64,000 nucleotides of DNA from positions 2,416,841 through 2,480,840 of the forward strand of contig OZ253443.1 in assembly GCA_965261135.1 (NCBI GenBank), in the 5' to 3' direction. Under the pieces are notes generated by a model, which was not told the origin of the DNA, did not search any database, and was given only the letters and a program-made list of their open reading frames with translations. Source of the DNA: Acidimicrobiia bacterium. Its GTDB lineage: Bacteria > Actinomycetota > Acidimicrobiia > Spongiisociales > ZC4RG35. This document shows positions 3-8,677 of the stretch, piece after piece. A program made the translations under genes and the position numbers. Within the stretch, counting starts at the first letter, position 1, and each line of letters begins with the position of its first letter.

Positions 3-1217
3 GTGGATACCCACTTCCACTGCCGGGCGCCCAGCAACCCCGAGCGGGCCACTTTCGCCTCCGAGTCGCGGGCGGCCGCCGCGGCGGGCGTCACCACGCT
101 CCTGGAGATGCCGATCTCCAACCCGCCATGCAGCACCCCCGAGGTCTTCGAACTCCGACGACAGCTGGGAGAGGCCGAATGCCTGGTCGACTTCGCGCTG
201 TACTCGGGAGCGGGAATAACCGACCCGGCCCGGGCAGAAGCAATGGTCGAGTGCGGGGCGATCGGATTCAAGCTATTCACCCACACTCCACCACCCGAGC
301 GGCTAGTGGATTTCGACGGTCTGTGGGCTTCGGCGCCCGAGGAGATCTACGACTGCCTGCGGACGGTGGGCGCCACGGGCCTGCGTTGCGCAGTCCACGC
401 CGAGAGCCAACAGTTCATCGAACGCTTCCGCGTCGACCCGGACCGCTTCGGGCATCCCTCCCGTCCTCCTCTGGTGGAAGCGGCGGCGGTGGGGCTGGTG
501 GCCACCATCGCCCGGGAACTCGGTATCCCCGCCCACATCGTCCACATCACATCCCGCATGGCTACCGAAGAGGTGAAGGCCGCCCAAGCCCTGGGCGTCG
601 ACCTCTCCGCCGAGTCCTGTCCCCACTATCTGCTGTTCGACGAGTCCCAGATTCCCCGGCTCGGCAATTTCGTGAAAGTGGCGCCGCCGCTTCGCCCGGC
701 CGAGGACGTCGAATTTCTGTGGGGAGCGCTGATCGACGGGTCGCTGTCGGTCGTGGCCTCCGATCACGCCCCATTCACGCCCGAAGAGAAGGCCGCCGCC
801 GACTTCGCCACCTCCGGACAGGGGATTCCCTCCCTGGAGATGCTGGTTCCGACGATGCTGGACGCCGGCCTCACCGGACGGCTTCCGTTGGCCCGGGCCG
901 TGGAGGTGATGACCGCCAATCCGGCCAAGCTGTTTGGCATCTACCCGCGCAAAGGCGCCGTCTCCCCCGGATCGGACGCCGACCTGGTGCTGGTGGACCC
1001 CAAAGCCAGCCTGATTGCTGACTCGGCCCGGTTCCTGAGCCGATCGGGTGGAAGCGGCAAGGTCTATGACGGATTGGACCTTGCGGGCCGCATCCTCACC
1101 ACACTGTCTCGAGGCCGCATCGTGTACGACCAGGGACATGTCACAGAAGGGCCGGGGGGTAAATTTGTCTCTCCGGACGGTCCACCCCTCCCCTTTTCGG
1201 AAACCCTCCCCAGCTAG
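3..1217 (+). CDS. cyclic amidohydrolase (allantoinase/dihydroorotase/hydantoinase superfamily), 5' end outside window
   Basis: Protein opens with metal-ligand motif DTHFH and an AAAGVTTLLEMP segment typical of TIM-barrel cyclic amidohydrolases. ORF begins at nt 3 with no start codon inside the window. Confidence 0.65.
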   Translation: MDTHFHCRAPSNPERATFASESRAAAAAGVTTLLEMPISNPPCSTPEVFELRRQLGEAECLVDFALYSGAGITDPARAEAMVECGAIGFKLFTHTPPPERLVDFDGLWASAPEEIYDCLRTVGATGLRCAVHAESQQFIERFRVDPDRFGHPSRPPLVEAAAVGLVATIARELGIPAHIVHITSRMATEEVKAAQALGVDLSAESCPHYLLFDESQIPRLGNFVKVAPPLRPAEDVEFLWGALIDGSLSVVASDHAPFTPEEKAAADFATSGQGIPSLEMLVPTMLDAGLTGRLPLARAVEVMTANPAKLFGIYPRKGAVSPGSDADLVLVDPKASLIADSARFLSRSGGSGKVYDGLDLAGRILTTLSRGRIVYDQGHVTEGPGGKFVSPDGPPLPFSETLPS

Positions 1218-1381: not shown

Positions 1382-2407
1382 CTACAGTTGGAGGGCGCCT
1401 CTGCGCCAGGCTCTCAGGTAGTTCATGCAGAACTCGTCCCCGCCCAGCAAGGCGTCTTCGGCAATTCGATAGGGCGTCGATTTCCGGTCGGCGGCGAACA
1501 CGGCGGAGAGTGGGTTCATGACCGGGTCGATGATGCCGCTGTCCGCGCCGGCATCGACAGCCAGGTTGATGAACACGGTGTTCATCAACTTCCGGGCCGG
1601 GATGCCGAAAGAGACGTTGCTCATCCCTCCGGTGATATGGATCTCGGCACCGAAACGACTGCGGAGCGTGCGGATCGCGTCGAGGATGTGCATCCCGAAA
1701 GCTCCATCCACGGAGATGGGAAACACCAGGGGGTCCACAAAAATGTCGCATAGTTCGATCCCCGCTCCGAGGGCCGCCTCCACCATCCGCGAAGCGTTCT
1801 CGATCCGCTCGGCGGCGTCCGACGGCATACCGGCGCCGCCAGCGGCCGTGACTATCACCCGTGCTCCGTACTCGACAGCCAGGTCGACTGCTTCCGTCCG
1901 TTCCAGAGACGCGGAGTTGAGCATCGGTCTCCCATCTCCGGTACCGGTGGCTGCCGCCAGACCGGTTTCGATGACGGTGATGTCGGAGGAATCAACCGAG
2001 ATCGGAAGCGTTGTCAACAACTGCACGTAGCCCACCAGCCACGCCATCGCCTGGCGCTGCTCGGCGGTCTTGAGGGATATCTCGTCGACGTTCACGTCGA
2101 GGTAGTGGGCACCGGCCCGTTCCTGGTCAACCACCACCCGCCGGAGGTACTCATAGCCCACCTCCGCCCCCTGGCCGCCAGCCATCGCCGTCTCGACCGC
2201 CAACGCGATGTGCTTGATGCGTCCCTCTTCATAAGCCTGGCTTCCGCGCATGGTCCCCGATATGTCCAAGAGACCCGGAGCGCCGTCCACCGAGACGAAC
2301 TTGACCCCCTCGACTCCCCCGTTAGTGGCGAACCGCCGGCCCTTTTTGAGAACGATCCGACTGGTGTGGACATTCTCGCCGATGACCGTGAACCGCCGGG
2401 GGGTCAT
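1382..2407 (-). CDS. methyl-corrinoid:tetrahydrofolate methyltransferase (pterin-binding domain, MT2 type)
   Basis: 341 aa with FTVIGENVHTSR opening and dihydropteroate-synthase-like TIM-barrel signature. Last gene of the co-directional methyltransferase operon. ATGA overlap with upstream gene at 2404-2407. Confidence 0.65.
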   Translation of the reverse strand: MTPRRFTVIGENVHTSRIVLKKGRRFATNGGVEGVKFVSVDGAPGLLDISGTMRGSQAYEEGRIKHIALAVETAMAGGQGAEVGYEYLRRVVVDQERAGAHYLDVNVDEISLKTAEQRQAMAWLVGYVQLLTTLPISVDSSDITVIETGLAAATGTGDGRPMLNSASLERTEAVDLAVEYGARVIVTAAGGAGMPSDAAERIENASRMVEAALGAGIELCDIFVDPLVFPISVDGAFGMHILDAIRTLRSRFGAEIHITGGMSNVSFGIPARKLMNTVFINLAVDAGADSGIIDPVMNPLSAVFAADRKSTPYRIAEDALLGGDEFCMNYLRAWRRGALQL

Positions 2408-4083
2408 GATCCAACCAGTTGCACCACCGGCCCCGGGCCCGGAAGGGTGGCGGGCATCGGTTTGAACTGGCAGCCTTCGACGAAGATATCAAAGAAATCC
2501 GGAGTGGTCTCCAGTTCGATGTGGGTGACCCACTTGGTCACTTCCTCCGCCCGGCGTCGTTTCTCCTCTGACAGCAAGAGCGCGCGTGCGCCCTCGACCG
2601 CCGCGTTGCCCACCTTGACCACCCGCTCGGCCGCCACCGGCGCCATGAGCCCGATCTCGATGGCGGCGCCCATGTCGAGATAAGTGGCAAACCCTCCCGC
2701 CAGGTACAGCCGCTCGATCTCCGCCGGCTGCACCCCCGCGGTGCGCATCACGATCAACTGTCCGCAGTGGTTGGCGGCCTTGGCTTGGGCCAGGTTGCTG
2801 ATATCCTCACGCGAGAACGTGATCCCCCGATCAGGCACCACGTCCATGGAGAAACGCTTGCGATCATTGGCGAACGCGCCCCGCTCGGTCATGAGCCCAT
2901 GTCGGCGGAGGTCAGCCAGCAGGTCAACCAGCCCCGAGCCGCATATCCCCACCGCAGGCGCCCCACCGATCGTCTCATAGGAGGTGGCGGCGCCGTTCGC
3001 TGACAGCCGGATCGACTCGATGGCGCCGTCGTAGGCTCGCATGCCGTAGCTGACCAGACCACCCTCGAAAGCCGGGCCCGCCGGGCAGGAAGCCGCCCAC
3101 ATGCGGCCCTGATGGCTGAGAATCACCTCGGTGTTGGTACCCATGTCCACCAGCATCTCGGTCCGTCCCCCCTCCCCGAGCCGTACTGTCTCGAGGCACG
3201 CCACCGCGTCGGCGCCCACATGGCTGGCCACCAGCGGTATTCCGTACACCTTGGCATTGCGATTTGCCCGCAGGCCCAGCGTTCGACTGTCGGTCAGGAG
3301 AGCCATGTGGGGACGGCGCCCGGCCAGGTAGTCGTGTTCGGTCAACGACTTGTATGGTTTCTGGCCGATGCTCTGCACGCTCAACCCGAACAGGATGTCC
3401 CGCATGGTGGAGTTGGCGGCGACCACGATCTCGTAGACGTGAGGAGGGCGTCGGCCGGCACGGCGAGCCAGATCCCGTACGCCCTGGTTGATAGCTGCCA
3501 CTGCCGCATTCTGGAGTTCACCACCAACTCCGGGGCGGGCTTCATAGGAGATGCGGTTCATCACGTCGCTGCCGCCGAACCCCTGGGGGTTCTCGAAACC
3601 GGCCACCCCCAGGCTGATTCCCGTCTCGAGGTCCACCAACTCCACAACCACCGTGGTGGTGCCGAGATCCACGGCCAAGCCGCATATCGCGCCCCGGTAG
3701 CGGTCGAGGACCGCATCCCCGTATCTGACCTCGTCGCCGACCCGGGTAACTGCCGGATGGAAATCGCCGGACGTCCGCGCTCGGAGGAGACTACTTTCGA
3801 GAATCCTCGGGCGTCTCCGCAACGGCGCGAATCTGATCGGGAGGTCATCGCGCACCACCCGGGCCTGACACGCCAGGCGGAAATCACCTCGGAGGAAGCG
3901 CTCGGTTTCGGTTCGCTCCGTCAGCCCTCCCATTCCCTCGGTTATCTCCACCACGCATTCATGACACTCCCCCTTGCGCAAGCACGATGTGGGAACCTCG
4001 ACCTCCAGCTTGTCAGCGTGGTCGAAGATGGTTTCACCGACTACGACGGGGCGCGTCTCGGCGCCATGGGAGACGGTGCTCAC
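2404..4083 (-). CDS. RACE-type reductive activator of corrinoid enzymes (2Fe-2S ferredoxin + ASKHA ATPase)
   Basis: N-terminal plant-type ferredoxin Cys motif CLRKGECHEC followed by a long ASKHA/DUF4445-like body. Start re-assigned to GTG at 4081-4083 (VSTVSHG...). The track ORF extends to 4272 only because no stop intervenes. Confidence 0.65.
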   Translation of the reverse strand: MSTVSHGAETRPVVVGETIFDHADKLEVEVPTSCLRKGECHECVVEITEGMGGLTERTETERFLRGDFRLACQARVVRDDLPIRFAPLRRRPRILESSLLRARTSGDFHPAVTRVGDEVRYGDAVLDRYRGAICGLAVDLGTTTVVVELVDLETGISLGVAGFENPQGFGGSDVMNRISYEARPGVGGELQNAAVAAINQGVRDLARRAGRRPPHVYEIVVAANSTMRDILFGLSVQSIGQKPYKSLTEHDYLAGRRPHMALLTDSRTLGLRANRNAKVYGIPLVASHVGADAVACLETVRLGEGGRTEMLVDMGTNTEVILSHQGRMWAASCPAGPAFEGGLVSYGMRAYDGAIESIRLSANGAATSYETIGGAPAVGICGSGLVDLLADLRRHGLMTERGAFANDRKRFSMDVVPDRGITFSREDISNLAQAKAANHCGQLIVMRTAGVQPAEIERLYLAGGFATYLDMGAAIEIGLMAPVAAERVVKVGNAAVEGARALLLSEEKRRRAEEVTKWVTHIELETTPDFFDIFVEGCQFKPMPATLPGPGPVVQLVGS

Positions 4084-4418
4084 CGGTTCCGGTCCTCCCC
4101 GGAACGGCGTCTCCGCCGCTCTGCGGCGTCTCGTTTGATCCTGACGATCTTTTTCCGGGTCCGCTCGTAGGCTCGGGGGTTGGATTCCCAGGCGCTGCGG
4201 TAGTCGAAGGTTCCGTCGTGGCCACAAGAAAGCTCGTTCGAATCGCCGGCCACGGGAAGCTGATTGCGGCATCGGAACAGAGCGGTGCAGAGATCGTGGC
4301 GGTCGCGATACGGACAGCGGGTGAGGGAGGACTCCTCGGCATGGGAAACGATGTCCGAGAAGATCGCAGCCATGCGGTCCAGCCGCTCCTGGTAGGCCTG
4401 CTTTTCGGAGTCGGACAT
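4080..4418 (-). CDS. hypothetical small Cys-containing protein (112 aa) inside the methyltransferase operon
   Basis: ATG at 4416-4418 lies 11 nt after the corrinoid-protein stop. Its TGA (4080-4082) overlaps the GTG of the activator gene (GTGA). Four Cys in CPYRDRHDLCTALFRCRN...SCGHDG. Arg-rich C-terminal tail. Confidence 0.45.
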   Translation of the reverse strand: MSDSEKQAYQERLDRMAAIFSDIVSHAEESSLTRCPYRDRHDLCTALFRCRNQLPVAGDSNELSCGHDGTFDYRSAWESNPRAYERTRKKIVRIKRDAAERRRRRSGEDRNR

Positions 4419-4429
4419 ATCTGTCCTGT

Positions 4430-5179
4430 TCAGTTGACCTCGACGGCTAGCTTCTTGGCCAGTTCCACGCAGGCGAGCGCGTCCTTGCCGTAGCCGTCGG
4501 CGCCCACGTCCTTGCCGAACTCGGGGGTTACCGGAGCGCCTCCAACCATGAACCGCACCGAGCCCCGCAAGCCGGCGTCCTTGAAAGCCTCCACCGTTTT
4601 GGCCATGTTCGGCATGGTCGTGGTCAGCAAAGCGGACATGCCGATCAGATGAGCGCCGTGGGTTTCCACCGCGGCGATGAACTCGCCCGGGGAGGTGTTA
4701 ACGCCGAGGTCAATCACCGCGAACCCACCACCGCGCAGCAGCATGATGCACAGGTTCTTGCCGATGTCGTGCAGGTCGCCTTGTACGGTGCCCATGATCA
4801 CTGTGGCGATGGGTTCAACTCCCGACGCGGCCAGGATCGGCTCGATGTGGGCCATCCCGGCTTTCATCGCCCGCGCAGACACGAGAACTTCCGGAACGAA
4901 CACGTACCCCTCACGGAACTTGATGCCGACTATCCCCATCCCGGCGATGAGCCCATCGTCCATGATCTCACCGGCGCCCACCCCCCTGTCGAGGGCTTCT
5001 CTGGTAAGTTGATCGACGGTGATGTTGTCCCCATCGATCAGAGCAGCGGCGATGTCCTGCATAGCAGGCGACACCCGGCAGAAGAGGACTATGTTCCTCT
5101 CGATCTCTTCGGGCCGCTCGAGGAACTCCTCGATCTCGGAGCGGATGAACTCGTTGGCTATGTCAGATAACTCAGCCAT
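4430..5179 (-). CDS. corrinoid (cobalamin-binding) protein, MtaC/MtvC-like
   Basis: 249 aa. B12-binding Rossmann domain with DxHxxG motif (GDLHDIGKN) and an N-terminal helical cap. Confidence 0.75.
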   Translation of the reverse strand: MAELSDIANEFIRSEIEEFLERPEEIERNIVLFCRVSPAMQDIAAALIDGDNITVDQLTREALDRGVGAGEIMDDGLIAGMGIVGIKFREGYVFVPEVLVSARAMKAGMAHIEPILAASGVEPIATVIMGTVQGDLHDIGKNLCIMLLRGGGFAVIDLGVNTSPGEFIAAVETHGAHLIGMSALLTTTMPNMAKTVEAFKDAGLRGSVRFMVGGAPVTPEFGKDVGADGYGKDALACVELAKKLAVEVN

Positions 5180-6292: not shown

Positions 6293-6566
6293 CCACTCAC
6301 CGGTGAGCCGGGTGAAGTTCTCACCCCTTCTCTTTATCTTTGCAGGAGAGATAGCCGATCCTTTCCACGCGCTGGCCTCACCCGGACGACAGGATAGGGG
6401 GGTTTTCGAAAAGCGCTTACAGTTGGAGGATAACAACCGGGTGTGCTGCCCAATGACCCCTTGGGGGGAGAATCCCAGAGCTTCAACCTCGGTCTGGGGC
6501 ATCGCGGCGCTCACCCCAACTAATATCCACTAAGAAGCGCTTGCTCAGAGACAAGGAGTAATAACC

Positions 6567-7733
6567 ATGACACATGTCCCCGTATCCCATCTCACTTCGG
6601 ATGCCGAGCGTGCCCGACGCTACGCCGCCCTCCGGGAAGTCATGGCCGGCGCCGGCCACGATGCCTGGGTTATCTGCAGCCGCGGCGACGAGTTCGTGCG
6701 TGGACGGGTCCAGTACGTAAGCGACATCTTCCAGTGGGCGGGCCGTGGCTTCGTGGTGTTCCCCTCCTCGGGCGAGGCCATTTTCGTGGTCGACCCGCTC
6801 TGGGGTACCGGCTACGCCATGCAGGGCAGATGGCTCAACGACTACCGCCAGCCCGACAACGCCGGAGCGGAAATCGGAGCGATCCTTTCCGACCTTGGGG
6901 TGTCCAACGGAACCGTGGGAGTAGTGGGACTGGCCGACATCACCGCCGTTGCGGACTACAACGACATGCGCAATGCCCTCCCCAACGCCACCTGGCAGGA
7001 CGCCACCGACCTGTTCGATGACGTCCGGATGATCAAGAGCCAAGAGGAGATCGACGCCACCTACGAGACCGGCAAGATCGTGCGCCAGGTGTTCAGAGGG
7101 ATAGAGGCGGAAATACGCCCCGGTGTCCAGGAGCTCGATGTCCTCTCCGAGGCGCACCGACTGGCGCGTCAACTGGGCTGCATGGAGGGTATCGCCCTGA
7201 TGGGCCGCGCCCCCTTCGAGTGCTTCGGACCGGGAACCCGCGGAGTGATCGAGGAAGACGACATCATGGTGTTCGACCTGGAGTGGGGAGGCCCTTCAGG
7301 CTACTGGGTGGAGGTTCGCAGGGTGTACAGCTTCAAGCCTCCAACCGCTGAACAGCAGGCGTTCTGGGAGATGCGGGTGGAGAGCTTCGATGCCGTCGTG
7401 CAGGCAATGAAAGCTGGAGAGTCATCCAACACCGTCCTCGACGCTCGCGATCGGGTCTACGAAGCCTGGGGATATCCTTCGGCGAAGGGCATCAACTCCT
7501 ATACCGCCCACGGCATCGGCGTCGACTCCCTGGAACCGCCGTGGATACCGGGGAAGGAGCGGATCATGCAGGAGAACATGATCATCAACACCCATCCGGC
7601 GGTCCGAATCGACGACCCCGTGAAGGGCTCCATGCTGGGCGGGATCAGCATCGCCGACAACGTCCTGGTCACCGCGGACGGTCCGGTCCGGATGGTCGAT
7701 CAGGTCGACGAATGGATCGTGCTCGACTGCTGA
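6567..7733 (+). CDS. M24-family metallohydrolase (Xaa-Pro aminopeptidase/creatinase fold)
   Basis: N-terminal creatinase/prolidase-like domain plus C-terminal pita-bread domain with HGIGVD motif. AAGGAG Shine-Dalgarno precedes the ATG at 6567. Divergent from the methyltransferase operon. Confidence 0.6.
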   Translation: MTHVPVSHLTSDAERARRYAALREVMAGAGHDAWVICSRGDEFVRGRVQYVSDIFQWAGRGFVVFPSSGEAIFVVDPLWGTGYAMQGRWLNDYRQPDNAGAEIGAILSDLGVSNGTVGVVGLADITAVADYNDMRNALPNATWQDATDLFDDVRMIKSQEEIDATYETGKIVRQVFRGIEAEIRPGVQELDVLSEAHRLARQLGCMEGIALMGRAPFECFGPGTRGVIEEDDIMVFDLEWGGPSGYWVEVRRVYSFKPPTAEQQAFWEMRVESFDAVVQAMKAGESSNTVLDARDRVYEAWGYPSAKGINSYTAHGIGVDSLEPPWIPGKERIMQENMIINTHPAVRIDDPVKGSMLGGISIADNVLVTADGPVRMVDQVDEWIVLDC

Positions 7734-7927: not shown

Positions 7928-8677
7928 TCAGTCCGGATAGTTGTAATAGCTCCCTCGGAAATACCCCAGCGCGGGCCGGTCGGTTTCAGCCATCTCCATT
8001 TTCTCCACTTCACCCAGGTAGATAACATGGTCGCCGCCGTCATAGCCGGCGATCACCCGGCACTCGAACCGCGCTATGTAGTCAGAGAGGAGAGGAACCC
8101 CTCCCAAACCCGGCGACCAGGAAACTCCATCGAGTTTTTCTGCCCCGGAGAGATCGCTCCGAGTGAATCGTCGCGACACCGACTCCTGATCCGCCGAGAG
8201 AACATGCACCGCGTAGCGGGTGGCAGTGGACATGATGCGGTAGCTGTTGGTCTCCCGATCGATGCACACCAGAACCAAGGGCGGATCGAGAGAAACCGAT
8301 GTGAAAGAGTTGACCACCAGCGCGGTCGGGACAGAATCCTGATCGATGGAGGTGACCGCGTTAACTCCGGTCATGAACTGTCCGCAGGCCTTTCGGAACT
8401 CGTTGGTGTCTACAACGTCTCGAGCCGAGATTGGCTCATCGCTCTCCACGCTGTCGCCCAACCAACGGATCAGACTACCGACCCGACGAGCCGGAAAAGG
8501 AAGCCTCTCATCACCCTCCACACTGTGACCCAGCCTGCGAACCAGGTGCCCCACCCGACGAGCTGGAACCAAGACCCGCTCTTCCACCCCTATGCCGTCG
8601 CCAAGCTTGCGAACCAGACGCCTAACGTGCTGCGGCGAAGACGGAGATTCCTTGTTCGATTCCATACCGTTCTCCAT
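7928..8677 (-). CDS. flavin reductase (HpaC-like FMN-binding split barrel) with repeat-containing N-terminal extension
   Basis: C-terminal ~170 aa carry FRKACGQFMTGVNAVTS and VLVCIDRETNSY segments typical of NAD(P)H-flavin reductases. N-terminal ~75 aa are three degenerate 22-23 aa repeats. Confidence 0.6.
   Translation of the reverse strand: MENGMESNKESPSSPQHVRRLVRKLGDGIGVEERVLVPARRVGHLVRRLGHSVEGDERLPFPARRVGSLIRWLGDSVESDEPISARDVVDTNEFRKACGQFMTGVNAVTSIDQDSVPTALVVNSFTSVSLDPPLVLVCIDRETNSYRIMSTATRYAVHVLSADQESVSRRFTRSDLSGAEKLDGVSWSPGLGGVPLLSDYIARFECRVIAGYDGGDHVIYLGEVEKMEMAETDRPALGYFRGSYYNYPD
8431..8640 (-). repeat. three imperfect ~66-69 bp tandem repeats encoding the PARRVGxLVRRLGxSVEGDE units
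   Basis: Repeats visible at DNA level (ccgacgagccgg...gcgaaccag... reiterated) and in the protein as VRRLVRKLGDGIGVEE / ARRVGHLVRRLGHSVEGDE / ARRVGSLIRWLGDSVESDE. Confidence 0.55.

Follow-up and report, generated by a model that had tools for sequence, protein, structure and literature searches.

What does a short open reading frame (ORF) do that lies between the genes of a corrinoid protein and of its reductive activase, and is it a gene at all? This question is raised by a 64,000-nt stretch of DNA from an Acidimicrobiia bacterium (GCA_965261135.1, contig OZ253443.1, positions 2,416,841-2,480,840 of the forward strand), called the window hereafter, in which an ORF of 112 amino acids (aa) with four cysteines directly precedes the gene of a RACo-type activase. 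O-demethylase systems are described as four-protein systems, comprising methyltransferase I, corrinoid protein, methyltransferase II and activating enzyme (AE) (PMC6739815), and a preliminary description of the window had read the ORF as a fifth component. Our data show that the ORF is a genuine gene under purifying selection. Judging from gene order and natural fusions, its product is very likely a module associated with RACo and the corrinoid protein. With slightly better than even confidence, we favour the explanation that it is a detached Cys4 metal module of RACo, which would have a role in re-reduction and would probably act as an electron-entry relay. For the narrower claim that the protein is specifically a redox relay, our confidence stays somewhat below even.

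The features of the small gene, in positions of the window, are as follows.

4080-4418, minus strand: small Cys4 protein, 112 aa, from ATG at 4418 to TGA at 4082-4080; assigned from ORF, GC content at third codon positions (GC3), homologues and dN/dS.

4176-4328, minus strand: conserved core, residues 31-81, from the invariant columns in family alignments.

4314-4316, 4287-4289, 4269-4271 and 4224-4226, minus strand: core codons of C35, C44, C50 and C65, respectively.

4424-4427, minus strand: AGGA, Shine-Dalgarno-like, 6 nt 5′ of the ATG of the small ORF, read from the sequence.

4080-4083, minus strand: GTGA, the stop codon of the small ORF over the GTG start of RACo, read from the sequence.

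The spacer between the stop codon of the corrinoid protein (TGA at 4432-4430) and the ATG of the small ORF is 11 nt long (4419-4429, ACAGGACAGAT). The encoded protein has four Cys (C35, C44, C50 and C65), the core motifs RCPYR, CTA, CRNQ and DYRSAWE, and a tail rich in Arg and Lys that comprises a basic C-terminal helix at residues 81-111. The 11-nt distance, the GTGA overlap, the four Cys and the basic tail are all as the preliminary description had given them, and the strand is minus. The GTGA overlap indicates that translation of the small ORF and RACo is coupled.

Because DNA with 61% GC, as in the window, is full of overlapping ORFs, and several of the many in this region run across the small ORF, the length of the ORF alone proves nothing. 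The ORF could be a chance product of GC-rich intergenic DNA, which gives many long spurious frames, or an untranslated leader of RACo. However, its GC3 is of the coding type, with 0.78 compared with 0.77-0.81 for the neighbouring genes and 0.54-0.61 for alternative frames of the same DNA. The dN/dS check that had been proposed gave 0.10-0.41 (Nei-Gojobori) against 12 of 13 orthologues, well below 1, with dS saturated for the 13th. Moreover, 137 close homologues were found (E=1e-67 to ~1e-28), which are nearly all 105-131 aa long and all unannotated, and same-length homologues number in the hundreds over five phyla, some of them fused in frame to RACo. It is from GC3, dN/dS, same-length homologues and kept synteny that the status as a gene follows, and with them the earlier view that the arrangement goes beyond chance. 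We give practically no credence to a chance ORF or leader, which the comparative data already refute.

To examine gene order, one genome was scanned for each GTDB species; 120 loci were found, of which 80 were fetched for counts. Altogether 173 loci were examined, including these 80 genome loci and 80 further metagenome loci retrieved with a profile of distant members. In tblastn comparisons with the window proteins, the order on one strand in almost all of the genome loci is URO-D methyltransferase, corrinoid protein, small gene and RACo (and then pterin-binding methyltransferase). The corrinoid protein lies directly upstream of the small gene in 79 of the 80 genome loci, and also in those cellular metagenome loci that are long enough to show it. 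A 4-nt NTGA overlap of stop and start codons joins the small gene to RACo in 58 of the 80 genome loci, RACo follows across a gap in nine and is fused in frame in six, and one locus is an orphan. In four loci of Alphaproteobacteria (L041, L044, L049 and L051) there is no RACo in reach and the pterin-binding methyltransferase comes directly after the small gene. Together with the retention of all four Cys in 80 of 80 genome loci, the synteny refutes any notion that the ORF and its Cys are not conserved.

Of the 173 loci, 32 have the small domain fused in frame with RACo; 26 of these are from metagenomes and 6 from genomes. No stop codon separates the small ORF from RACo in the genomic ones (L037, L040, L046, L055, L063 and L072), and another fusion of 647 aa (P0145) was found in the representative library. 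The fusion in L037 is an uninterrupted protein of 661 aa, with the Cys4 domain at residues 1 to ~105, Fer2 at 119-186, Raco_middle at 242-407 and RACo_C_ter at 416-648; the Cys4 domain is hence placed directly before the electron-entry domain. On the fusions, AcsV, RamA and ferredoxin models start at residue 108 or later and leave the first ~105 residues uncovered. The small protein itself gave no match to NF040756, TIGR04270, PF14574, PF17651 or PF00111, and is not a member of the RACo/AcsV/RamA family. The window hence carries the split form of an extended RACo with an N-terminal Cys4 module. This split form is real and does not originate from a sequencing frameshift, because 58 diverse genomes have the overlapping-gene arrangement. 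Of the proposed fifth component, it holds that the small protein is a genuine and coupled extra part between corrinoid protein and activase, and it fails that this part is independent, as it is the N-terminal domain of RACo in the fused loci.

Conservation concentrates on the Cys core. Besides the four Cys, R34, P36, Y37, R38, D42, T45, G69, D72, A76 and W77 are invariant in the genome loci, and the family signature, which comes after an amphipathic helix, reads RCPY[RK]-x5-C-T-A-x-F-x-C-R-N-Q ... C-x6-DYRxAWE. Cys spacing is C-x8-C-x5-C-x12-16-C, of which C-x8-C-x5-C is fixed in 369 of 393 retrieved family proteins and the last loop has 12-16 residues, mostly 14; no invariant column of the family is missing from the window protein. 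In the broad family, most of whose distant members have 80-95 aa, only C35, P36, C44, C50 and C65 are invariant, while R34, Y37, T45, A46, Q53, D72, Y73, R74 and W77 are nearly so. The His of the CGHDG motif, which is part of the Cys stretch quoted in the preliminary description, is not kept across the family (C-x-H in 149 of 307 members).

The basic C-terminal helix bears on the earlier suggestion of a nucleic-acid-binding accessory. According to this suggestion in its wider form, the protein would be a redox- or metal-sensing regulator that binds nucleic acid by its Arg/Lys-rich helix (residues 81-111) and controls expression or translation of the operon, and the stand-alone copies in phages and orphans, described below, would suit such a regulator as well. 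However, most members of the wider family have only 80-95 aa and lack the helix, and P0201 and P0208, two of the fusions, have a short linker where the basic tail would be. Moreover, no DNA- or RNA-binding family was matched, and one would not expect a transcription factor to be covalently fused to an enzyme, as is the case in 32 loci. We consider a regulator very improbable, and the suggestion of nucleic-acid binding, which had been drawn from the tail, is not sustained.

The family reaches over five bacterial phyla and marine phages. Its 80 genome loci comprise ~40 from Acidimicrobiia and unclassified sponge- or coral-associated metagenome-assembled genomes (MAGs), a group that includes Candidatus Spongiisociaceae and holds the closest relatives of the window, ~30 from Alphaproteobacteria, 5 from Gemmatimonadota and 3 from Latescibacterota. 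A profile search of 1.84 billion representatives gave 197 clusters at 50% identity, and a broader profile against a set of 5.8 billion proteins gave at least 1,789 clusters at 90% identity. The best 120 of these latter clusters have 79-134 aa, no Pfam domain and only 'hypothetical protein' as name, and come from MAGs of Dehalococcoidia/Chloroflexi, Latescibacterota and Gemmatimonadota. When Pfam, NCBIfam and PHROGs were run against the small protein, against distant members and against fusions, nothing matched the Cys4 domain; a sequence search of the PDB with two profiles (E≤10) gave no match, and literature searches gave no description of such a small Cys protein. All 80 loci of the genome scan are from MAGs or single-cell assemblies, and tblastn against PLSDB gave no plasmid copy and hence no annotated cultured carrier; the family has probably been overlooked for this reason. 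On sequence grounds, we propose that the small protein represents a new family, which we define here as the RACo-associated Cys4 domain.

Copies outside the operon are of two kinds. In two Acidimicrobiia loci (L032:6001-6342 and L087:6001-6336), the small ORF is intact between the M24 and amidohydrolase genes, while three separate deletions took away the methyltransferase, the body of the corrinoid protein, and RACo with the pterin-binding methyltransferase, leaving ~90 nt 5′ of the ORF. Between these two loci, the small ORF is 81% identical, far less than the M24 gene beside it (96.6%) and little more than intergenic DNA (77%), and near-invariant residues are altered in the orphan copies (F71S/V and N52C). 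Because the orphan ORF diverges at nearly the intergenic rate, we read the orphans as a decaying relic, perhaps with some remaining activity, and infer that the small protein depends on the operon for its function. Taking them as proof of independent function was rejected as unproven in view of this near-intergenic divergence, although their omega is 0.36.

The second kind is found in ~30 loci (L088, L089 and L094-L125), where a member of 80-90 aa with all four Cys lies amid many short ORFs of the same strand (for example, the small gene at L088:5556-5828). Its neighbours are a sigma factor (phrog_351), a DNA methyltransferase, DUF2452 (immediately upstream), PAP2, a 'peptidase' (phrog_459) and AAA_5; the 'peptidase' of 752 aa (E=1e-192) is 36% identical to the homologue of cyanomyophage S-RSM4. 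This context is probably that of a T4-like marine myophage. The assignment comes from the neighbouring genes only, because a profile search and a search with a phage-type protein in IMG/VR and tblastn against INPHARED gave no relatives. These copies show that the Cys4 domain can work as an autonomous unit.

How would such a module act? In our favoured explanation, the small protein would be a metal binder with the four invariant Cys as presumed ligands, made in step with RACo through the GTGA gene overlap. It would bind RACo beside the [2Fe-2S] ferredoxin domain, as it is placed in the natural fusions, and would take part when the corrinoid protein of a URO-D-type methyltransferase system is re-reduced from Co(II) to Co(I) at the expense of ATP. 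An extra redox centre, either an Fe-S cluster or Fe(Cys)4, may take electrons from a cellular donor and pass them to the [2Fe-2S] cluster of RACo. That a complex forms, that a metal is bound, which metal it is and that the protein relays electrons are all inferred. An extra metal centre feeding RACo gives the best fit because it accommodates at once the Cys4 signature, the position before Fer2 in the fusions, the coupling and the stand-alone copies. Of the earlier proposals for the protein, a metal- or FeS-binding accessory is still the best reading, with the specific metal left to inference.

Several observations weigh against this explanation. Neither the window protein nor the family consensus has a CxxC pair, and no Fe-S or zinc family of Pfam or NCBIfam is matched. 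A fold comparison with the PDB gave no match for the Cys4 protein, and the Cys core, modelled alone, reached a predicted local distance difference test score (pLDDT) of only 65. The carriers are, as we presume, mostly aerobes, in which exposure would endanger an Fe-S cluster. The domain occurs with no adjacent RACo in L041, L044, L049, L051, L090 and L174 of Dehalococcoidia (none within 3.6-6 kb), and RACo is a less constant neighbour than the corrinoid protein. In addition, the phage-type subfamily stands alone, with no corrinoid genes in its sequenced flanks of up to ~6 kb, and the omega of 0.36 for the orphan copies is not 1.

The main rival of an electron relay is a structural Zn(Cys)4 adaptor. 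Here the knot of Cys, with a surface formed by Y37, CRNQ and DYRxAWE, would dock RACo on the corrinoid protein or steady the mobile Fer2 domain and have no redox role. Small proteins of the Cys4 kind very often bind zinc, and oxygen-insensitive zinc would suit hosts that we take to be mostly aerobic. The unusually strong conservation outside the ligands suits a specific binding surface, the gene lies between those of two proteins that must meet, and it keeps its place behind the corrinoid protein in loci that lack an adjacent RACo; a zinc docking surface would account for the corrinoid protein being the more constant neighbour. However, there are no CxxC knuckles and no match to a zinc-finger or zinc-ribbon model, and fusions put the domain by the electron-entry Fer2 and not by the middle domain that binds the corrinoid protein. 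A conserved stand-alone subfamily in phages is also harder to reconcile with an adaptor of a host complex. We hold the zinc adaptor to be unlikely, at roughly one chance in four.

The constant place behind the corrinoid protein, kept even where RACo is not adjacent, would suit also a helper in corrinoid or cobalt handling, which would carry no electrons but help the corrinoid protein to take up B12 or set its ligand state (His-on/His-off). A few kb at most separate phage-type copies from the genes of a CobT-like 'peptidase' (phrog_459) and of a CobS-like AAA_5 protein, and the role would be comparable to that of DUF1638, a second accessory that is genetically required in Phaeobacter (PMC5764234). 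However, the proximity in phages is loose (~3 kb) and may be coincidental, there is no similarity to a known family of B12-binding proteins or cobalt chaperones, and the fusions that recur are with RACo and not with the corrinoid protein. Such a helper seems improbable to us. Loci with no adjacent RACo may encode one elsewhere in the genome, or the small protein may work there with the corrinoid protein alone.

Gene contexts in the wider family extend this picture. Modules there run from a protein of ~226 aa through URO-D methyltransferase and corrinoid protein to the small gene, usually followed by RACo; in L174 and L090 the module ends at the small gene. Near these modules are genes for homocysteine S-methyltransferase (PF02574), a PF13769 mini-ORF and/or the pterin-binding methyltransferase, and the link of corrinoid protein and small gene holds with either final acceptor enzyme, pterin-binding or homocysteine S-methyltransferase.

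Two side observations belong to these contexts. A protein of ~200-231 aa is encoded directly 5′ of URO-D in most loci outside Acidimicrobiia and is absent from the window operon (examples are L084:5448-6143, L081:2592-3236, L174:4417-5097 and L090:12-611). Two of its members are 32% identical, with a repeated FPCG..H / F.C...H motif. Assignment of the 226-aa protein to DUF1638 was rejected, for it has no Pfam match. In many relatives, PF02574 is accompanied by a mini-ORF of 89 aa (PF13769, 'Virulence_fact') and often by the pterin-binding methyltransferase (L084:10009-11281; L131, L136, L164 and L168). These appear to be parts of a split MetH-like methionine synthase that act on one corrinoid protein, as in MtgCDE of roseobacters.

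In the window, the neighbours named in the preliminary description (methyltransferase, corrinoid protein and RACE activator) are borne out by Pfam and NCBIfam.

2404-4083, minus strand: RACo-type reductive activase, 559 aa, with Fer2 (PF00111), Raco_middle (PF17651) and RACo_C_ter (PF14574).

4430-5179, minus strand: corrinoid protein, 249 aa, with B12-binding cap (PF02607) and B12-binding domain (PF02310).

5225 to ~6292, minus strand: methyltransferase of the URO-D/MtaA-CmuA family (PF01208 at residues 76-404 of a 429-aa ORF; tblastn).

1382-2407, minus strand: pterin-binding methyl-H4folate:corrinoid methyltransferase (PF00809; match to NF005719 below cut-off).

The domains of the activase are a [2Fe-2S] Fer2 domain, Raco_middle and an ASKHA ATPase (RACo_C_ter), and its matches to the NCBIfam models of AcsV and RamA are below cut-off. 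The GTG at 4083 is the true start of RACo, because homologues align from about residue 1, directly after the small ORF. The in-frame extension to an ATG at 4272 (622-aa ORF, 4084-4272) overlaps the small ORF and has a GC3 of 0.54 compared with 0.79 for the gene. The corrinoid protein has the DxHxxG motif (GDLHDIGKN, read in translation) and stays below the cut-off of MtgC-like NCBIfam models (202 compared with 370 bits). The URO-D methyltransferase scores 222 bits against TIGR01463, whose cut-off is 235.4. Its start was inferred at ~6292, where the Pfam match and the alignments of homologues begin (about residue 75), and 6293-6514 (minus strand) is the extension of the listed ORF 5′ of the real start. 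The ATG of the pterin-binding methyltransferase overlaps the stop codon of RACo (ATGA, 2404-2407). With activase domains, a B12 corrinoid protein and methyltransferases in one operon, the window has all parts of a RACo/RACE system.

In the closest Acidimicrobiia, the operon is flanked by an M24 creatinase/prolidase-like gene and an amidohydrolase gene, with a flavin-reductase-like ORF nearby; the window ORFs of these flanking genes are at 6567-7733 (plus strand), 3-1217 (plus strand) and 7928-8677 (minus strand). The M24 and amidohydrolase flanks may hint at a methylated substrate of the creatine or sarcosine type.

Comparison with known systems locates the novelty in the module and not in the operon. 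RACo/AcsV of Carboxydothermus hydrogenoformans and the RACE AE of acetogens resemble the window in activase domains and in the four operon components, and the same ATP-driven reduction of Co(II) to Co(I) as for RACo and AE is expected here (PMC6739815). RACE activators have one [2Fe-2S] or two [4Fe-4S] clusters and use ATP, and the [2Fe-2S] cluster of the AE of A. dehalogenans has a potential of -330 mV, compared with ~-530 mV for the Co(II) that is to be reduced (PMC6739815). Whereas described RACo and AE are monomers that start with the [2Fe-2S] domain, a Cys4 module of ~80-110 aa precedes Fer2 here, either separate or fused. RamA of Methanosarcina is likewise an activator with an ASKHA ATPase, and its two extra [4Fe-4S] clusters are a precedent for added cluster domains. 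These clusters lie in a C-terminal domain of the ferredoxin type with CxxCxxCxxxC motifs. The Cys4 module, in contrast, is N-terminal, has the spacing C-x8-C-x5-C-x14-C and is unrelated to RamA in sequence.

Among other small Cys domains, the N-terminal [4Fe-4S] domain of the large subunit of CoFeSP (PF04060-type) is a small Cys4 domain that serves as electron entry for reductive activation; its spacing is C-x2-C-x4-C-x16-C, and it is attached to the corrinoid protein. The module described here is associated with the activase instead and has no Pfam match. In CCCH zinc fingers (tristetraprolin-type, C-x8-C-x5-C-x3-H), the first three Cys are spaced identically to those of the small protein. 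However, the latter has no His at +4 (position 54 is Leu or variable), its fourth ligand is a Cys 12-16 residues on, and it gave no match to zf-CCCH of Pfam; the resemblance is probably coincidental. The two CxxC (or CPxCG) knuckles of rubredoxins and zinc ribbons were not found, nor was any of the known Fe-S profiles Fer2, Fer4, PF04060, WhiB and HiPIP matched by the small protein.

DUF1638 (PF07796) proteins are ~200 aa long, and the small protein gave no match to PF07796 (E≤0.1). Like the small protein, DUF1638 is a second accessory beside a RamA-like activase in aerobic marine bacteria (PMC5764234; PMC12478193). Genetic work in the aerobic alphaproteobacterium Phaeobacter showed that a split methionine synthase needs both a RamA-like protein (Fer2+DUF4445) and DUF1638 for its B12 to be reactivated (PMC5764234), and in Ruegeria proteins of both types become more abundant together with the MtgBCDE system (PMC12478193). 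Neither of these papers mentions a small Cys protein (PMC5764234; PMC12478193). The methyltransferase of MtgBCDE belongs to the MttB family (PF06253), unlike that of the window, which belongs to the URO-D family, and the window operon seems to be a sibling of MtgBCDE (PMC12478193) and not a member. What is new, then, would be that the RACo activase has an additional Cys4 module, encoded in the window by a separate, coupled gene; the operon itself is of the known RACo/RACE kind.

Our results can help to see corrinoid methyltransferase systems differently. These systems are described as having four components, the route of electrons to the activase is poorly defined and least clear in aerobes, and their presence in aerobes has been recognised only recently, with split MetH and MtgBCDE in roseobacters. 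The Cys4 family offers a testable candidate for a missing electron-entry or docking element. Moreover, it flags for annotation thousands of 'hypothetical proteins' in metagenomes of the ocean and of sponge symbionts, and shows that many annotated RACo proteins carry an unrecognised Cys4 domain. A wider and more speculative proposal, which we consider possible though rather doubtful, is that the Cys4 class forms the gate by which electrons physiologically enter RACo-type activases in bacteria exposed to oxygen, leading them from a cellular reductant to the [2Fe-2S] cluster. The hosts concerned might be marine Acidimicrobiia, Alphaproteobacteria, SAR202-type Chloroflexi, Gemmatimonadota and Latescibacterota, and copies in marine T4-like phages might keep the B12 enzymes of the host active while it is infected. 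If true, this proposal would explain how corrinoid methyltransferases stay reduced in oxygen-exposed cells.

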